A stretch of DNA of 64,000 nt from a virus (taxonomy: Duplodnaviria > Heunggongvirae > Uroviricota > Caudoviricetes), in the IMG/VR virus record IMGVR_UViG_2778261161_000002, one strand, 5' to 3'. Made by a program: the position numbers and the translations under genes. Positions 1 through 51,209 of this stretch are shown one piece after another; position 1 is the stretch's first letter, and every line of letters starts with the position of its first letter. A model generated the notes under the pieces. It did not search any database. It was given only the letters and a program-made list of their open reading frames with translations, and was not told the origin of the DNA.

Positions 1-451
1 TTTGCTGCCATGTTTCTTCTTGGTATTTAGGCCGACGCCCACCTATACGACCTTCTGCGCGAGCTGCATCAAGTCCAGCGCGTGTACGTTCAACGATAAG
101 CTCACGTTCCATTTCTGCCAGCGCCCCCATTACGTGAAAGAAAAAGCGCCCCATTGGTGTACTGGTGTCGATGGAGTCAGTGAGACTCCGGAAGTTAATG
201 CCTCTGTCACGCAGCTCTTCCACCAGCACAACTAAGTGACGCATGCTGCGCCCAAGACGATCTAACTTCCATACGACTAGGGTGTCACCTCTGGAAAGCA
301 TACGGAGAACCTTTTTTAACCCTGGGCGTTCAGCCTTTTTGCCGCTCGCCTTATCCTCAAAAATTAGCTCACATCCTGCGCTTTCAAGGGCGTTTCGTTG
401 TAAAGCGGTGTTTTGGTCATTAGTTGATACGCGAATGTATCCAATAAGCAT
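1..451 (-). CDS. Serine DNA invertase (Cin/Gin/Pin/Hin family), 3' end beyond window
   Basis: Reverse-strand translation from ATG at 451..449 gives MLIGYIRVSTNDQNTALQRNALESAGCELIFEDKASGKKAERPGLKKVLRMLSRGDTLVVWKLDRLGRSMRHLVVLVEELRDRGINFRSLTDSIDTSTPMGRFFFHVMGALAEMERELIVERTRAG, near-identical in pattern to Pin/Gin. Confidence 0.9.
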   Translation of the reverse strand, partial: MLIGYIRVSTNDQNTALQRNALESAGCELIFEDKASGKKAERPGLKKVLRMLSRGDTLVVWKLDRLGRSMRHLVVLVEELRDRGINFRSLTDSIDTSTPMGRFFFHVMGALAEMERELIVERTRAGLDAARAEGRIGGRRPKYQEETWQQ

Positions 452-556
452 ATGTCCCCCCTTGTATGTTAAGGGGGGAGATTTTAGAAGATGTCCTGTA
501 AGGAAATAACAAACTGACTAAGTTAGTGGCGCATTAGATGTTATTTCTGGAGGGGT

Positions 557-883
557 ATGTTTGCAGATTATGAAAATCTGGCTGTAGTAGTCATAACATC
601 CCTACTAAGTGGAACCGGCGTATTCCTTCTCGGAGTTAGAGACGGGCGCATTTCTGCGTCCCTGCTCAATCTTGCGAGTGAATTGTTTACTGCGGTAACA
701 GCCGGGCTTGCGGGGTATGGGGTGGCGGTTAGCCAAGAATGGCCTGAAGGTATCATTTTCTGCGTTGTTCTGATTGCCAGTAACAACGGTAGTGAAATTT
801 TACAGGGCTTGAAGTCCAGAGCTAGTAACGTCTTGAATCTCTTAAGCGTAATAGCGAATGGGGGAAAAGGTGGAGAGAAATAA
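557..883 (+). CDS. Putative holin (LydA-like by size and position), 108 aa, three hydrophobic segments
   Basis: ORF track; hydrophobic segments VVVITSLLSGTGVFLLGV, LFTAVTAGLAGYGVAV, IIFCVVLIASN; first gene of operon divergent from invertase. Confidence 0.4.
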   Translation: MFADYENLAVVVITSLLSGTGVFLLGVRDGRISASLLNLASELFTAVTAGLAGYGVAVSQEWPEGIIFCVVLIASNNGSEILQGLKSRASNVLNLLSVIANGGKGGEK

Positions 884-1329
884 TGGGTAACTTTGGAAAT
901 TATTTCATTTTTATCATGGCATTTGTTGCCATCATTGACCGTTTCATTTTTCGTCGCAAGAGTGTTGAGATTTTGAGTATTGGTGACGCTGTAGTGAAAG
1001 AATCCGCTATAGCATTTCCTGTTTCGCTACGTGTTAAGCGAAGCTGGGTCAGCAATGCTCAAATCGAATATTGGTTGCAAGACCTGAAAAATCCATCTGT
1101 GGTTATTTCAGGGAAAACGCGACCAGTTGACGCCTCAAAACGCGGTGAGAGAGAAGAGTATTTGCTCATCGATACGAAATATCTTGAGCCAACGAAGTGG
1201 GATCTGAAAGTCACATTGACTAACGGTAACTGCCGACTGAATCCGCTTTATCGCATTTTCCCTATCAATGACTGCATAGAGCGCCAGTTTACGATCGAAA
1301 AGCGTGAAGGAGACTGGGATGTCAAATAA
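883..1329 (+). CDS. Hypothetical protein (LydB-like position), 148 aa
   Basis: ORF track; start overlaps stop of upstream ORF (ATGA coupling). Confidence 0.35.
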   Translation: MGNFGNYFIFIMAFVAIIDRFIFRRKSVEILSIGDAVVKESAIAFPVSLRVKRSWVSNAQIEYWLQDLKNPSVVISGKTRPVDASKRGEREEYLLIDTKYLEPTKWDLKVTLTNGNCRLNPLYRIFPINDCIERQFTIEKREGDWDVK

Positions 1330-5787: not shown

Positions 5788-7470
5788 ATGGCAACGAAAG
5801 ACAAAAACAAAGGCTTTCTGTCAGCATTGAAGAAAGCCTTCAACGGTGGTGATGTTACGCCCGCCGATCCGGTCGTTTTTACGAGCGGACATAGTGTCGT
5901 TGCTCGTTCCGGCCTGTCTGCTTTACGTCCAGGCATCCTGGGGAGCAATAGCGATGGCATGACGAGTGAGGCAGATTCAATTTCTTTATCCGCTGAACTG
6001 CCCGGCGAGCGCCTGCAAAAGTACAACATCCTGGAAACGATGGCTAAAAGCCCGACTATCTCGACGGCTTTAAACATTCACATTGCACATGCGCTTGCGC
6101 CTTCAAAAAAAACCGGACAGGCATTCATCCTTTCGCCAAAGGATGGTTCCGATGCCGAGGCAGTAAGTAGATGTGAAGAGTTAACCGCTGATTTGGGGGC
6201 GATGATTAATGACGGACTTCCTTCATGGGCCATGATCATGGCGATCTTTGGGGTGTCTTATGTCCGACCTTATGCTGAACAGGGCAGGGGGATAACAGGC
6301 ATTGAGTCCAGTTATTACACTCTGCCACATTTCGTCCAGGAATTTTATCGCGGTAGCCAGCTGGTTGGATTCAGTGGTGATTACATCCTGGATACGCATA
6401 GTTTGCGCAGAGTAATAACCGAACCGTGGAATCTGGTTTCCATGAAAAATCCCTATTGGACGCCACAGCATAAAGTTATTCCGGTTAGCTACGGCACAAA
6501 AGGGTACTCACTGTTAAGTGAGCAGGCTGATAAGCCGTTAATGGAGACGCAGAATTACGGAACTTCATTCCTGGAATACAGCTATGAACCTTACCTTAAT
6601 TTATGTGCTTCGCTCGCCGCGCTGAAATCAACGCGAAATAATGCAGCCAAAATTGACCGCCTGATTGCTCTTACGACGAACACACTGGACCCGGTTAATG
6701 CGGCGAACTATACGCGTGGCGTCAGCCAGGCATTGAAGCGTCATAGTGACCTGGTGGCGCAAAGGTCGATTAATGCCAACGCTATTCCGACTGTGCTTAA
6801 CCATCTGATACCTGTTATGGGAGACGGGAAGAACGGCATCACCATTGATACGCAATCCATACCCGCAGATATCAGTGGTATCGAAGACGTTATGTTTCAC
6901 CTCCGGCAGCTTGCTGCAAGCCTCGGCATTGACGCAACAATGCTTGGCTGGGCTGATCAGATGAGCGGAGGGCTTGGAGAAGGCGGCTGGCAGCAAACTG
7001 CTATCCAGGCTGCATTGCGTGCGAACTGGATCAGACAGGCCGCCCAGCGAACTATTTATCGGCTTCTGGACATTCACCTCGCTTATAAATACGGCAAGGT
7101 TTACACCGAAACAAACCGCCCTTATGACGTGCAATTCAACTCAATGAACACTGCTATCCAGGAAGAGGAAAACCGGGAACTGGATGCACGCGCCAACTTT
7201 GTTGCTGTCATCTCCCAAATTATGGACCAGATCCAGAACAACCCGAAACTGGCTGGTAGTGACGCGTTTATGCGTTATCTGTTCACTGAGCAGTTGCACA
7301 TCGACGATGACACTCTCAACACCATGATCAAAGAGTTTAAGGCGAATGAATCAGAGCAAAACAACGAGCATGGTATGTACGAATCCGCGCCGTTGTCGTC
7401 CGGTGACGATCCGGAAAACTGGACGCCAGAACAGTTAATAAACTTTGCAAAATTTGTGATGAGCAATTAA
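5788..7470 (+). CDS. Hypothetical large protein, 560 aa (possible virion/morphogenesis-associated)
   Basis: ORF track; no motif I can name with certainty. Confidence 0.45.
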   Translation: MATKDKNKGFLSALKKAFNGGDVTPADPVVFTSGHSVVARSGLSALRPGILGSNSDGMTSEADSISLSAELPGERLQKYNILETMAKSPTISTALNIHIAHALAPSKKTGQAFILSPKDGSDAEAVSRCEELTADLGAMINDGLPSWAMIMAIFGVSYVRPYAEQGRGITGIESSYYTLPHFVQEFYRGSQLVGFSGDYILDTHSLRRVITEPWNLVSMKNPYWTPQHKVIPVSYGTKGYSLLSEQADKPLMETQNYGTSFLEYSYEPYLNLCASLAALKSTRNNAAKIDRLIALTTNTLDPVNAANYTRGVSQALKRHSDLVAQRSINANAIPTVLNHLIPVMGDGKNGITIDTQSIPADISGIEDVMFHLRQLAASLGIDATMLGWADQMSGGLGEGGWQQTAIQAALRANWIRQAAQRTIYRLLDIHLAYKYGKVYTETNRPYDVQFNSMNTAIQEEENRELDARANFVAVISQIMDQIQNNPKLAGSDAFMRYLFTEQLHIDDDTLNTMIKEFKANESEQNNEHGMYESAPLSSGDDPENWTPEQLINFAKFVMSN

Positions 7471-23125: not shown

Positions 23126-23202
23126 GATGGTGTAGCTCAGTAGGATAGAGCAGCAGCCTTCTAAGCTGTCGGTCGGTGGTTCGAATCCATCCACCATCGC
23201 CA
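23126..23202 (+). tRNA. tRNA-Arg (anticodon TCT, reads AGA)
   Basis: Manual fold: acceptor GATGGTG/CACCATC, D-arm GCTC..GAGC, anticodon loop CTTCTAA, T-arm GGTGG-TTCGAAT-CCATC, CCA encoded. Confidence 0.8.
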
Positions 23203-23204
23203 AT

Positions 23205-23279
23205 GCCGGTTTAGCTCAGTTGGTAGAGCGCCTGCCTTGTAAGCAGGATGTCAGCGGTTCGAGTCCGTTAACCGGCACC
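23205..23279 (+). tRNA. tRNA-Thr (anticodon TGT)
   Basis: Acceptor GCCGGTT/AACCGGC, anticodon loop CTTGTAA, T-loop TTCGAGT. Confidence 0.8.
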
Positions 23280-23734: not shown

Positions 23735-23821
23735 GGAGAGTAGGGGGCATGGTGCTCAAGCGGTCTTGAAAACCGTCCCATTGCGCAAGCGATGATGGTT
23801 CGATTCCATTACTCTCCGCCA
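23735..23821 (+). tRNA. Probable class II tRNA, anticodon TGA (Ser-like), long variable arm
   Basis: Acceptor GGAGAGT/ACTCTCC, anticodon arm GCGGT-CTTGAAA-ACCGT identical in loop to E. coli tRNA-Ser(UGA), T-arm GATGG-TTCGATT-CCATT, CCA; D-arm atypical. Confidence 0.55.
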
Positions 23822-24442
23822 TCGCAACGTTAAGAGTATTTGGCTAATTAAGCGAATGCCGGAAGCAGAACCGGATCATCAAATGCGTACAGGCGTCATC
23901 GCCGCCCAGCCAGCCAAGTGCTCTTACCATTGCGGTGAATGCGGCTAAGCGCACGCGGAACAGTTAAAACAATCCTCCTTAGTGGTTAAGTCAAACATCC
24001 CGGCGTTAATTGTTAACTGGTTAACGTCACCTGGAGGCACCAGGCACCGCAATCTAATAAAGTTTCAAGCAATGGGGTTTTTGTTGTCAGACTTCAGATA
24101 TAGATGGTTGTGGAAGGAGAGCCTGTACATAGTGCAGTTATTTCTTCCGCTATTTGTCTGCTTTGTCATGCTTCCTGAGCTGAAATACGCAATTTCAGAC
24201 ACTTTAAGCACTATCGTTACTTTTGTGTTTTATCTTTACTTTGATTACTTATTGAGCACTAAAATCAATGAATTATCCGAGGAAATGCAAGGTGGCTGTA
24301 AGTGATGGATTTTTGGGCGTTTGCCGATAAGAACCCTGGTTGGACATTTTTATTTTTGCTGGTGGTTGCATATGGGGTCGAGCAAGCGGCTAAAGCCTTA
24401 CGCGGTTCTGGCAAAAAGCGTAAGCGGAATTAACAGTAATCT

Positions 24443-24518
24443 GGCCCTTTAGCTCAGTGGTTAGAGCAGGCGACTCATAATCGCACGGTCACCGGTTCAA
24501 ATCCGGTAGGGGCCACCA
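24443..24518 (+). tRNA. tRNA-Ile2-like (anticodon CAT, AUA decoder) or tRNA-Met
   Basis: GGCCCTTTAGCTCAGTGGTTAGAGCAGGCGACTCATAATCGC... near-identical to E. coli ileX from memory; T-arm ACCGG-TTCAAAT-CCGGT; CCA. Confidence 0.8.
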
Positions 24519-24972
24519 TATTTGGTTGTAACACGGCGTATGGCACATGCGTCGTTAGCGGTCTGGTGTAGCTGTTAGGTACCTTACTAACACTGCATGG
24601 GCACATCAGGTAGCCGGAATGTGCAAGTCACCGCTGGAGGGATAGCGGACTCAGGGACTCACCATCCTGGCGATTCGGTGTGACAGCCGGAATAGCACGG
24701 CGCACAACAGGAAAAGGCGTTTAATTAACGCGAGCGCCGTTTCCGTTGTGGTAATTGCGGCTATGCGCTCGTGACGAAGCCATTTTCATTCACTACGTTC
24801 TGATAAGTGACGTCGCCGGGAGTGGCTAACCTGGCAGGTGGAGGCACCACCGCCACAACTCCTCTCAATTCATCATATAGCCGCTCAGGCTGTACCTCTT
24901 AATTAATACGAAGTTACGACATCACTACCGGTACTTCCGGGGGATAGTCGCGCGTGTAAAAAAGGAGACGTT

Positions 24973-25548
24973 ATGTTAATGGCGAACGATAACGCATATG
25001 CAGAAGAAGATCTCATTTTGAGTGACTTCATAGGGAAGCGGGAACGCTGGACCCAAAAGCGAGAGGAACTTTACGCCTCATTAGTTCGCAAAGGCGTCAA
25101 TATCGAAACCGCACAGAGCGGCGATATGACAGTGGTAAGCGTTGGATTGCACGGTGTAAGCGTGTCAGCAATCAATCATGAGCCATACGTTGCGTTATCC
25201 GAGTCAATGGTAAGGTTAGTTAAGTTCCTGAAGTACACAGAAGCGAATAATGTAATCATTGGCAAAAAGAATATCCCTTTTTCCTCGGCTTTTTACTGGA
25301 TGATGAAAGGGCTTGATGCCCGGCGGACATCATGGCCTAAAGGGAGCTATATATCGATGTTCCGTGGCAGCATTGGCAGCAAAGAAAAGCTCTTCGAATT
25401 CTTGCCGGAAGAGGCATTCGATATTGTGGAAGGGTGCGATGTGATGGTGATGCCTCGCCTGGTAATGATGAATGGGGATTTACAGGCGCAGACAGACTGG
25501 TTTGCAACTGGTGTGGATATTATCGCGACTGACTGGGAGGCTTTCTGA
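24973..25548 (+). CDS. DUF2829 (Tad2-like) domain protein with N-terminal extension, 191 aa
   Basis: C-terminal half FYWMMKGLDARRTSWPKGSYIS ... WFATGVDIIATDWEAF matches DUF2829 pattern. Confidence 0.5.
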   Translation: MLMANDNAYAEEDLILSDFIGKRERWTQKREELYASLVRKGVNIETAQSGDMTVVSVGLHGVSVSAINHEPYVALSESMVRLVKFLKYTEANNVIIGKKNIPFSSAFYWMMKGLDARRTSWPKGSYISMFRGSIGSKEKLFEFLPEEAFDIVEGCDVMVMPRLVMMNGDLQAQTDWFATGVDIIATDWEAF

Positions 25549-25940
25549 TGTACGGGACTACCAAATTAAGCACTCAACAGGCCACCAATATGGAGTGGTC
25601 TATCGCTAACTGTAAGATCGTGTCATGCAATGTCACGCGTACTGATGTGGGCCATAAAAGCACTATAACAGGCTATCTAGTAATGACCACCAGGGGGATG
25701 AGGGTTAGATTTCGCTGGAAAGCAGAGCAAGTAACGCCATTCAGAGAGCCATCAATGCCGCTGCAGGTTGAGCAGGATTATCTATGTTTACCAGAAATAG
25801 ATGGAGGAATGCTGGTGGAGTCTGATGGTAGTAAGGCTGATTTTGAAGCCAATTTGAAGCTGGCACAGGCCGTAATCAATAGTTATCGCGGAAAGTGGAT
25901 CGCAAAAGTGAAACATGTTGTTCGTTTGTCTCGCTGGTAG
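25548..25940 (+). CDS. Hypothetical protein, 130 aa
   Basis: ORF track; ATGA coupling. Confidence 0.45.
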   Translation: MYGTTKLSTQQATNMEWSIANCKIVSCNVTRTDVGHKSTITGYLVMTTRGMRVRFRWKAEQVTPFREPSMPLQVEQDYLCLPEIDGGMLVESDGSKADFEANLKLAQAVINSYRGKWIAKVKHVVRLSRW

Positions 25941-32216: not shown

Positions 32217-32689
32217 AAACTTATTACCCATCTCTGAATTGTTACCCGTCTTCCTATCCAGAATTATCCGGGAAGCTGTTAGCTCTATTAGCTAAAGCAC
32301 CTACGGAATGGTTTAAGCCAGTCGTTATCAATCCACACTTCCTGGATTACGGAACTGTTCGCACTCGTAACGAACTCAAAAACCTACTGGCGCATGGATT
32401 CATTCGACACCGTGCCGGGAAAGGCTATCAGTTAGCGATTGCGCCAGAAGAGGCCGTGCGGCTATTCGCATATCGTGACAGCCAGACAAAAGCTCGGGTA
32501 ATAGCTCAAATACTTCATAACGGCAGCACCTATGCCCGCCAGTTTGGCGGCGACACGTCGCAGTTCTTGCGGGCGGTGCGATCGCTGGAGGAGCAAGGAG
32601 TTATTGAAAGTTCCTGTCTTCCTGTTCCTACCGTTCCACATATCAAACGTCGGGTTTACACCTTCACGCAGAGAGCTAAAAAACAATGA
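32213..32689 (+). CDS. Hypothetical protein, 158 aa
   Basis: ORF track. Confidence 0.45.
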   Translation: MKTYYPSLNCYPSSYPELSGKLLALLAKAPTEWFKPVVINPHFLDYGTVRTRNELKNLLAHGFIRHRAGKGYQLAIAPEEAVRLFAYRDSQTKARVIAQILHNGSTYARQFGGDTSQFLRAVRSLEEQGVIESSCLPVPTVPHIKRRVYTFTQRAKKQ

Positions 32690-33180
32690 TTTACGTAAAA
32701 GTGAAACGCCTACATCCGGCAGCAAAACTTCCAGCTTATGCCACCTCCGGATCGGCGGCGATGGATTTTGAGGCTGTTGAAATAAAACCATGCGTCGATA
32801 GCAATGGTGCAATTTCCTCAAGCTGGTGGGTGTACACCGGACTGGCTATGGAGATCCCGCCCGGCTGGTGTCTGAAACTCTATCCGCGCTCCGGATTGGG
32901 CTGCAAAAAACATACTCGCCTGGCTAACTGCGTAGGAATTATCGACTCCGATTATCGCGGTGAAATCATGGCAAAACTGATTACTGATCCCGGCGGGGAA
33001 GGCGTTTGTCTCAAGCCTGGAATGGCTGTCATGCAAGGCATTTTTGAGCGTGTTGAACAAGTCTCACTAGTCGAGGTTGAGGAACTCAACGAAACGGAAC
33101 GTGGTGCTGGTGGCTTTGGTAGCACATCGGAAGACCACTTTGAAATCAAGCGCACACCGCTTCAGTACGCAAAGTTTTAA
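32686..33180 (+). CDS. dut: dUTP diphosphatase (dUTPase)
   Basis: Motifs SGSAAMDF, PRSGLG, GIIDSDYRGEI, ERGAGGFGSTSE. Confidence 0.85.
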   Translation: MIYVKVKRLHPAAKLPAYATSGSAAMDFEAVEIKPCVDSNGAISSSWWVYTGLAMEIPPGWCLKLYPRSGLGCKKHTRLANCVGIIDSDYRGEIMAKLITDPGGEGVCLKPGMAVMQGIFERVEQVSLVEVEELNETERGAGGFGSTSEDHFEIKRTPLQYAKF

Positions 33181-33194
33181 GCAGAGGAAAGGCT

Positions 33195-33896
33195 ATGAAT
33201 TACATGACAACGAAAGAGCTTTTTAAGTTCCTTCCCAAATACAAAGCTCACAAAAACGTTAGTGCATCGAAAATCAAAAATGTTGTTATTTTCGGAGTAA
33301 CTGCTTCCCCACTTTGGGGCTGCATCGAACTCGTTGAACCAAAAGGGGCAACAGTTTGTGTTGACGCAATTTTTTTACAAAAACACCGACCAAAAACTGG
33401 CGGGTATCTGATCGTTTATGAAAACGGTTATCTGTTCTATGCCCCGGAGAAACCATTTGAGCAATGCTATGGCCTGGTTAACGACGCCTCCGAAAATGGG
33501 GTATCGCTCAGCATTGAAGGTCACAATGGGGTGACATTCATTACAGCCAGGGACGTAACTATTTCTGCTGGCGGTATCGCTACTCTACAAGAAGAAATCG
33601 ACCTTGAAGCAGCCGACTTTTCTGACGCGCTGATGTGGCTGAAGGATGGCAAGAAAGTTGCTCGACGCGGGTGGAACGGCGAAAACCAATTCTGCTGGCT
33701 GGTTCCTGACAAACAGGGTGCTTCAAGACTAACCCCTATAAAACATGCCGCAAACGGAGAGCTTGAAATCAATTTCGACTCTCCTCTTGCTCCTTATGGT
33801 GCGCATTTCGTTTTGAAAAATGCACAAGGTGTAGTTGTTCCATGGATGCCTTCTGTAGGTGACCTGCTGGCATGTGACTGGTTTGTAGTGGAGTGA
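33195..33896 (+). CDS. DUF2829 (Tad2-like) domain protein with N-terminal extension, 233 aa
   Basis: C-terminal LMWLKDGKKVARRGWNGENQFCWL ... VVVPWMPSVGDLLACDWFVVE matches DUF2829. Confidence 0.6.
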   Translation: MNYMTTKELFKFLPKYKAHKNVSASKIKNVVIFGVTASPLWGCIELVEPKGATVCVDAIFLQKHRPKTGGYLIVYENGYLFYAPEKPFEQCYGLVNDASENGVSLSIEGHNGVTFITARDVTISAGGIATLQEEIDLEAADFSDALMWLKDGKKVARRGWNGENQFCWLVPDKQGASRLTPIKHAANGELEINFDSPLAPYGAHFVLKNAQGVVVPWMPSVGDLLACDWFVVE

Positions 33897-50052: not shown

Positions 50053-50268
50053 ATGGCTACTATCCCTACCCCAACTCATTCTGAATTTATCTGGCGTTTC
50101 TATTCCTGCCAAAAACACCTGTATATCTGCGTCATGGCTGCAACCGAAGCAGAAGCTCGTTCATACCTTCCTGAAGAACCCTGCATTTTTGCCGCACGCT
50201 TCACTCTTGATGCGATGGAGATCCTCAATTACTGGAATCTGCCAATGAACTGCGTGGAGGTGCACTGA
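50053..50268 (+). CDS. icd: Icd-like protein, 71 aa (second copy)
   Basis: EFIWRFYSCQKHLYICVMAATEAEARS; paralog of 10059. Confidence 0.55.
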   Translation: MATIPTPTHSEFIWRFYSCQKHLYICVMAATEAEARSYLPEEPCIFAARFTLDAMEILNYWNLPMNCVEVH

Positions 50269-51209
50269 TGAATCTGTCCATCTCTCAAAAAGCGACAATG
50301 ACCAGCATTGAGATCGCGGAACTGGTAGGAAGTCGCCAAGATAGTGTGAAGAGAACTATCGAAACACTGGCTAAAAAGAGTGTGATCCAATTTCCACAAT
50401 CTGTGGAAATTGAAAATAAACAATCAGTTGGCCCTCGTCGATTTTCCAAGGCTTACATCTTTGAAGGCGAACAAGGCAAGCGCGATAGTATCATTGTCGT
50501 CGCACAGCTCTCTCCGGAATTCACCGCCCGGCTGGTGGACCGCTGGCGCGAACTGGAGAATGCCAGGGGACCGTTAAAATCAAAAGCCGAAATCCTGGCT
50601 GAAATGGCGCAAATGCATCTTGAGCATGAACGCCGGATCAACGCCGTAAATGCCCAGGTAGCCGAGGTATCAGCACAAGTATCGATGGTCGCTGAAACAC
50701 TCGAGCAAATAAAGAAAGGCAATATGCCGGAAGGCTACATTGGCTACCGCCAGCTGGCGGCGAAATGCGGCCTGACTGAAGCCAAATGTCGCAACCTGGT
50801 TAACGCTTACCGGATACCCACTGATACGCATGAGTTTTTGACTCCCGACGGTTTGCTTGCGCGACGCTCAATTGTGGCCCTGGCCCCCTTCCGGAAAGCC
50901 TTTAAGCAGGTTATGTCGGAGGCAGAACCACGCAACAAACGCTGGTATCATCCAAAGATGGGGATGTTTCAGGCAATCCACCATCCTGTGCCTGAAAGTC
51001 CAAAGGCAAACCTGTCGTTGCATACCGCCAGAGAGAGGATTAAAACAGGGTATGCAATCGTATGCCGTCGAGCATCTTGGCCTGAAGGTGTATGGGTATG
51101 GCCCGAAGGTGGATCACGAAAGCACTGGCGCACTATCCGGGATGGGAAAATCCATGCGATTGATTTAGCTCCAGAGGATGTTGTTGCTACGGACTGGATT
51201 GTTAGTTAA
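50268..51209 (+). CDS. ant: Antirepressor-like protein (second copy), 313 aa
   Basis: Shares conserved blocks with ORF 10283 including a 56-bp identical DNA stretch. Confidence 0.55.
   Translation: MNLSISQKATMTSIEIAELVGSRQDSVKRTIETLAKKSVIQFPQSVEIENKQSVGPRRFSKAYIFEGEQGKRDSIIVVAQLSPEFTARLVDRWRELENARGPLKSKAEILAEMAQMHLEHERRINAVNAQVAEVSAQVSMVAETLEQIKKGNMPEGYIGYRQLAAKCGLTEAKCRNLVNAYRIPTDTHEFLTPDGLLARRSIVALAPFRKAFKQVMSEAEPRNKRWYHPKMGMFQAIHHPVPESPKANLSLHTARERIKTGYAIVCRRASWPEGVWVWPEGGSRKHWRTIRDGKIHAIDLAPEDVVATDWIVS

Follow-up and report, generated by a model that had tools for sequence, protein, structure and literature searches.

A two-domain Tad2-like protein of D6-type phage-plasmids, a candidate immune-signal sponge with an altered ligand pocket

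I analyzed a gene for a Tad2-like (DUF2829) protein and its surroundings in a stretch of viral DNA of 64,000 nucleotides (hereafter, the window). The features that matter for the analysis are as follows.

23126-23279, 23735-23821, and 24443-24518: tRNA cluster of Arg(tct), Thr(tgt), Ser(tga), and a CAT-anticodon tRNA
24963..24967, + strand: Shine-Dalgarno sequence AGGAG, 5 nt before the start codon (direct sequence reading)
24973..25548, + strand: two-domain Tad2-like gene, 191 aa, ATG start (ORF list), the same as phage D6 gp006/orf6, YP_009914683
25000..25245, + strand: N-terminal lineage-specific alpha/beta domain, aa 10-91, alpha-alpha-beta-beta-beta-alpha (predicted fold)
25279..25542, + strand: C-terminal Tad2-like (PF11195/DUF2829) domain, aa 103-190 (Pfam)
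25333..25344, + strand: W121-P122-K123-G124, the altered W-N-G-K-G ligand loop (alignments and pocket comparison)
25498..25518, + strand: W176-F-A-T179-G-V181-D182, the counterpart of W87-L-A-S90-Q-T92-D93 (alignment)
25548..25940, + strand: orf5 (D6 gp005/orf5), a 130-aa basic protein, in TGATG overlap with the Tad2-like gene
33195..33896, + strand: second Tad2-like protein, 233 aa (local domain HMM; PF11195 at 76.3 bits, aa 141-232)
9697, 20642, 25961, 30394, 44010, 48582, 53007, 61058, and 61081: sites of the motif TTTTCTAAYATAA

The ORF at 24973..25548 is a real gene with a strong ribosome-binding site. Its product and gp006/orf6 of Escherichia phage D6 are 100% identical. D6 is a P1-like plasmid prophage that shares 97.8% identity with the window region, and phrog_7362 matches the product over its full length (E 8.5e-136). 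The window is a D6-like P1-family phage-plasmid. In PLSDB, the gene lies on 125 plasmids from E. coli, Salmonella, Shigella, and a few others, nearly all of which are non-mobilizable and about 75-97 kb in size. Among 5,426 complete E. coli genomes, 98 carry the gene, and it is plasmid-borne every time. The dN/dS value of the gene is 0.10 against an allele of 90% nucleotide identity; this allele was used because synonymous sites are saturated against a 54%-identical orthologue, which was dropped.

In the window, the gene order is tRNAs, tciA/tciB, tRNA-Met, the Tad2-like gene, orf5, lpa, pacA, pacB, and then c1 on the opposite strand. All two-domain homologues with a retrievable context occupy one and the same slot of P1/D6-like elements of about 88-93 kb, bounded by tciA/tciB (TerB, DUF3927) on one side and by lpa-pacA-pacB-c1 on the other. 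In P1, the equivalent slot holds the non-essential genes phd-doc, pdcA, and pdcB (HNH endonuclease). I considered pdcA/pdcB as counterparts of the D6 module, and they turned out to be unrelated. Since the P1 genes of the slot are non-essential and unrelated, the slot is a variable accessory-cargo position.

Several side observations were made in this region. The CAT-anticodon tRNA is tRNA-Met according to ARAGORN, tRNA-Ile according to the PGAP annotation of a related plasmid, and trnI in P1. The RefSeq record of D6 lists Asn, Thr, and Ser tRNAs and leaves the CAT tRNA between tciB and orf6 unannotated. The tciA-like ORF (23982..24305, + strand) has a GTG start and encodes 107 aa, versus 144 aa in D6; the D6 alignment around it (the 23931-24051 region) is split in two pieces with 88% coverage, and a sub-threshold Rfam match to STnc100 (39.4 versus 47 bits) overlaps its start. 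Near the Tad2-like gene, Rfam gave only tRNAs and sub-threshold matches.

As for regulation, a sigma-70 scan upstream of the Tad2-like gene gave no promoter on the + strand. The P1 C1-operator consensus has no match in the window at up to 3 mismatches. The P1 Lpa box (AAGT-N-ACTT, from the P1 annotation) combined with a -10 element gave 7 sites versus 5.9 expected, none of which lies upstream of the Tad2-like gene. On the other hand, the 13-bp motif TTTTCTAAYATAA occurs at 9 sites with at most 1 mismatch, versus 0.23 expected by chance. The sites that were checked lie in intergenic spacers, among them the spacer that separates orf5 from lpa and the one upstream of c1, and the site before lpa is exactly at the position of the C1 operator Olpa in P1. 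TTTTCTAAYATAA is probably the C1 repressor operator of D6-type elements. No copy is present directly upstream of the Tad2-like gene.

The start codon of orf5 overlaps the Tad2-like gene by one nucleotide (TGATG), indicating translational coupling in the D6-proximal clade. The orf5 product is basic (pI 9.4) and is confidently predicted to adopt a pocket-forming alpha+beta fold (pLDDT 89); Pfam, PHROG, and PADLOC searches gave no family match for it. Do the two proteins work as one unit? An acidic Tad2-like protein might be the scaffold or regulator of a basic cone-fold (RsaM/NTF2-like) protein, or the reverse. The overlap of the two genes would fit such a unit, as would the persistence of orf5 homologues at loci with a Tad2-like protein of 22-36% identity, the opposite charges (pI 5.0 versus 9.4), the confident pocket-forming fold of orf5, and the similar purifying selection (dN/dS of 0.12 for orf5). 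However, the distribution of orf5 among the homologue loci is patchy, and I regard a two-protein unit as rather improbable. Since orf5 is absent beside the more distant two-domain homologues, it is a companion limited to the D6-proximal clade and not an obligate subunit.

The C-terminal half of the 191-aa protein had been assigned to DUF2829 (Tad2-like) in a reading of the sequence without database searches. This assignment was borne out by the profile search. PF11195 matches aa 103-190 with 39.1 bits (E 1.1e-9; profile positions 3-72 of 73), above the curated cut-off of 25 bits. The score is modest compared with the 76 bits of the second copy in the window. To avoid circularity, I also searched with a profile made of members of the two-domain subfamily and nothing else, which reaches five solved Tad2 sequences with E values from 1.8e-7 to 5.7e-6, including SptTad2 (1.8e-7), HgmTad2/AcrIIA7 (1.2e-6), ModTad2 (2e-6), and SPO1 Tad2 (5.7e-6). 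A Foldseek search of viral predicted structures (BFVD) with the predicted fold gave a run of phage proteins named 'Thoeris anti-defense 2-like domain-containing'. When 1.84 billion representative proteins were scanned exhaustively with HMMER, no more than 31 relatives came up at E<=1e-3; about 12 of them have the full two-domain length, the others being short or differently extended Tad2-like proteins. Other searches were negative: a single-sequence search of the PDB with the 191-aa protein gave only chance matches to malate dehydrogenase, the NCBIfam release 20 HMMs did not match the protein despite its PGAP name, and PADLOC reported nothing for this protein, for its orf5 partner, or for the second Tad2-like copy. 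In summary, aa 103-190 form a genuine Tad2-like (PF11195/DUF2829) domain on the grounds of sequence, profile, and predicted fold.

The labels of the same gene have drifted in databases. It is a 'hypothetical protein' in D6 and in most PLSDB entries, an 'MW1434 family type I TA system toxin' in some PLSDB entries, and a 'Thoeris anti-defense Tad2 family protein' in the current RefSeq/PGAP annotation of the identical gene. Could the protein be the toxin of a type I toxin-antitoxin system? The PGAP-derived label on several plasmid copies and the phd-doc addiction module in the equivalent slot of P1 speak for it. However, the MW1434 name goes back to a list of prophage genes of S. aureus that was compiled by bioinformatics only, and RefSeq has since relabelled the protein. 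Type I toxins are generally short, hydrophobic peptides that act at the membrane. The protein of 24973..25548 has 191 aa, is acidic and soluble, does not exceed a hydropathy of 1.2 in any 19-residue stretch, and is confidently modelled as two globular domains. The toxin label was rejected for the size, the globular model, the low hydropathy, and the list-derived name; I consider it extremely improbable. The candidate sponge that the sequence-only reading had proposed is reasonable. It coincides with the current automated annotation, so that at this level there is little in the finding that was not known before. What is new is modest: a lineage-restricted two-domain architecture, a pocket without the canonical diphosphate clamp, a conserved and coupled partner, orf5, and a coexisting second copy with the canonical clamp.

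The N-terminal domain (aa 10-91) is predicted with a pLDDT above 90. It has no match in Pfam (E<=1) or NCBIfam, dsrm included, and is under purifying selection with a dN/dS of 0.08 against the 90%-nucleotide allele. Within the reach of HMMER, the domain was seen only fused to the Tad2-like domain of the two-domain subfamily, and it is confined to about a dozen clusters at 50% identity. It had been remarked that an N-terminal extension of this kind is unusual for the family. This did not hold up: Tad2-like phage proteins of 150-270 aa are common in BFVD, about half of the matches outside the subfamily in the exhaustive HMMER search exceed 125 aa, a head domain of 48 aa precedes the Tad2 core in pdAcrIIA7, fusions of Tad2 to other sponge domains are frequent, and the second Tad2-like protein of the window itself has a 140-aa N-terminal part. 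Thus, what is particular to the product of 24973..25548 is the identity of the N-terminal domain and not the existence of an extension.

The ligand pockets of Tad2 proteins are well described. The gcADPR pocket of SPO1 Tad2 includes W25, N26, W73, and D79, plus T78 and others, while that of HgmTad2 consists of W21, N22, G23, M76, A78, T82, V84, W87, L88, S90, T92, and D93. The Trp pair sandwiches the ligand, the Asn(-Gly) of the WNGKG loop holds the diphosphate, and S90, T92, and D93 of the S-x-T-D segment contact the ribose hydroxyls and the adenine. The W21A/N22A and S90A/T92A/D93A mutants of HgmTad2 have lost gcADPR binding. A separate pocket of HgmTad2 for cyclic dinucleotides is made of R31, K46, S47, F70, and N85.

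In the alignment, W21, M76, W87, and D93 of HgmTad2 are kept in the window protein as W121, M165, W176, and D182, respectively, and S90 is conservatively changed to T179. Both W121 and W176 are present in every one of the 29 aligned sequences. In contrast, N22-G23 is replaced by P122 plus a one-residue deletion, so that WNGKG reads WPKG and the clamp is lost. T92 is changed to V181, and A78, T82, and V84 are changed to N167, Q171, and Q173. Across the two-domain subfamily, the position of the clamp Asn varies strongly (P, R, D, M, N, G, or H). In the cyclic-dinucleotide pocket, R31 alone is kept (R131), while K46, S47, and N85 correspond to E142, F143, and T174. The beta2-beta5 insertion is about 30 residues long, versus 41 in HgmTad2. 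Judging from these residues, with the Trp pair kept and the clamp lost, conservation covers the fold and the aromatic core of the pocket but does not extend to its polar and phosphate-binding part. A non-canonical gcADPR site is rare among short Tad2 proteins, at only about 1% by the estimate of Li et al., and the two-domain clade falls within this minority.

Is the protein a binder of macromolecules rather than a nucleotide sponge? The Tad2 fold might recognize a structured RNA or a host or phage protein, with the N-terminal domain aiding recognition in the manner of a dsRBD or HPF. AcrIIA7 was reported to capture tracrRNA, with K58, K66, and K71 essential for RNA binding, although its anti-CRISPR activity was not reproduced by another group. 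Only the counterpart of K71 is kept in the window protein (K123); the other two are M111 and T119. Both domains are acidic with a net charge of -3.3 each (pI 5.0 for the whole protein), versus a pI of 8.9 for HgmTad2/AcrIIA7. The lack of any dsrm or other Pfam match at E<=1 also counts against this reading, and the alpha-beta-beta-beta-alpha arrangement is a common small fold, the identities being 8-17%. A bona fide dsRBD was rejected because the N-terminal domain is acidic and has no basic surface signature. E. coli is not known to have a type II-A CRISPR-Cas9, which speaks against an AcrIIA7-like role. Altogether, macromolecule binding seems unlikely.

The reading that I prefer is that the product of 24973..25548 is an immune-signal sponge, although I would put it at about an even chance. 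The analysis shows the gene, its domain identity, the predicted fold, the states of the pocket residues, synteny, and selection; for this reading, I infer the oligomeric state, the ligand binding, and the anti-defence phenotype of the protein. The gene would encode an accessory anti-defence protein of D6-type phage-plasmids. The C-terminal Tad2-fold domain would most likely form a homo-oligomer, a tetramer by analogy, and the pockets between its protomers would bind and hold a small, nucleotide-derived signal of host immunity. With the signal captured, a Thoeris-, CBASS-, or Pycsar-type system would be left with an inactive effector. The pocket may have been retuned, keeping W121, W176, and the ribose-contacting D182 and dispensing with the Asn-Gly clamp and the adenine-contacting Thr. 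Since these two elements are lost, the ligand is probably not bound in the way 3'cADPR is bound in SPO1 Tad2 and HgmTad2, and it may be a different molecule. Tad2 members sequester various ligands, such as 3'cADPR, His-ADPR, N7-cADPR, and cGAMP/cGG/cUG or cUMP/cCMP; this functional plasticity of the family makes a retuned ligand plausible for the window protein. The N-terminal domain is a lineage-specific add-on that might serve in modulation or oligomerisation or as a further binding module.

Several points weigh against the sponge reading. The N22-G23 clamp, which is needed for gcADPR binding by HgmTad2 as judged from W21A/N22A, is replaced by Pro and a deletion, and a conserved site for phosphate binding would not be expected to vary as this position does in the subfamily. 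Val stands in place of T92, and Phe and Thr in place of the cyclic-dinucleotide residues S47 and N85. At 39 bits, the Pfam match is a modest one. Furthermore, the pockets of known sponges are positively charged, while the window protein is acidic overall. The candidate status given in the sequence-only reading follows from the Tad2-like domain and agrees with the RefSeq name, while its more specific assignment to Thoeris and CBASS is not simply transferable, because the pocket residues are altered (the clamp lost, T92 replaced by Val, and S47 and N85 changed). A bolder version of the sponge reading is that the Tad2 pocket was rebuilt for a signal new to Tad2, that the N-terminal domain is a novel ligand-binding or sponge module, and that orf5 is a further anti-defence factor. 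The Sequestin sponge family was found via 'guilt by fusion or adjacency' with Tad2. I hold this combination to be a long shot.

A phmmer search found no close paralogue of the 24973..25548 product in the window, and a local domain HMM was needed to detect the second copy at 33195..33896. In this copy, the GWNG clamp is canonical and the W.PSV.D segment resembles that of ModTad2. A second Tad2-like protein with a canonical clamp on the same element would fit a division of labour between the two proteins. The second copy lies directly after a dUTPase gene (32686..33180). Its N-terminal region of about 100 aa matches stand-alone proteins of other phages (phrog_11049; Ralstonia GP4 and PaBG), which is what a fused module would show. 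Among phages, the second copy has its best match in SJ46 (71%) and not in D6; thus, the window is mosaic at 33195..33896. A published DefenseFinder survey listed 'Tad2 AcrIIA7 (anti-Thoeris)' in 93% of D6 elements and 56% of P1 elements, and the stronger-scoring second copy is likelier than the gene at 24973..25548 to be the one behind these figures.

Further Tad2-like sequences were noticed. In an Ant/Rha-like anti-repressor (phrog_63; 50268..51209, + strand), the C-terminal 60 aa or so gave fragmentary matches to the local Tad2 HMM (E 4e-4); Pfam gives no support, and it is probably not a third Tad2 copy. One related P1-like contig (L007) has extra weak Tad2-like ORFs at 413..931 and 6001..6621, including a 172-aa Tad2-like ORF upstream of a pmgS-like gene, and another (L013) has a weak Tad2-like match of 92 aa at 530..805. 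Since these related contigs carry additional weak Tad2-like ORFs, the presence of several Tad2-like genes per element seems to be a recurring trait of the P1/D6 phage-plasmid group.

Clinical and livestock isolates of E. coli, Shigella, and Salmonella commonly carry D6/P1-type phage-plasmids, and coping with host defences shapes the stability and host range of these elements. If the divergent copy binds another signal than the canonical copy, the known ligand range of the Tad2 family grows, and the divergent copy could be a bait for a new immune messenger of Enterobacteria, as in the case of ModTad2 and His-ADPR. Should it prove to be one more gcADPR sponge, it would be an unremarkable member of the family, and the label in the databases is already correct.

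How does the window protein compare with the known Tad2 systems? The founding member, SPO1 Tad2 (gp34.65; PDB 8SME-8SMG), is an 89-aa inhibitor of type I Thoeris. The window protein shares its Pfam family and fold and keeps the counterparts of W25, W73, and D79. In contrast to SPO1 Tad2, it lacks the counterpart of N26, is twice as long with two domains, and belongs to a phage-plasmid of a proteobacterial host. HgmTad2/meAcrIIA7 (PDB 8KBI-8KBM) and SptTad2 (8WJD) are tetrameric sponges for gcADPR and cyclic dinucleotides. Compared with these two, the window protein has a Pro and one residue fewer in place of N22-G23, and a Val for T92. Compared with HgmTad2, it also has Asn, Gln, and Gln for A78, T82, and V84 and Glu, Phe, and Thr for K46, S47, and N85, is acidic instead of basic, has the shorter insertion (about 30 versus 41 residues), and carries an extra 100-aa N-terminal domain. 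It does not show the feature set of the cyclic-dinucleotide-binding subgroup (HgmTad2/SptTad2), since R131 is kept while S47 and N85 are changed and the insertion is short. Unlike the RNA-binding DUF2829 proteins of the AcrIIA7 type, it has neither K58 and K66 nor a basic core. ModTad2 (PDB 9EIB/8V3E), a sponge for His-ADPR and cUMP, retains the GWNGKG loop, which the 24973..25548 product does not, and its W.PSV.D segment is much closer to the second copy than to this product. In pdAcrIIA7 (PDB 9KZR), the 48-aa head domain modulates activity with the tetramer intact, and the Acb4-Tad2 and Sequestin-Tad2 fusions are functional dual sponges. Like these proteins, the window protein is a Tad2 core behind an extra N-terminal module; unlike them, its module is not the two-helix head of pdAcrIIA7, Acb4 (PF13876), or Sequestin (PF21825).
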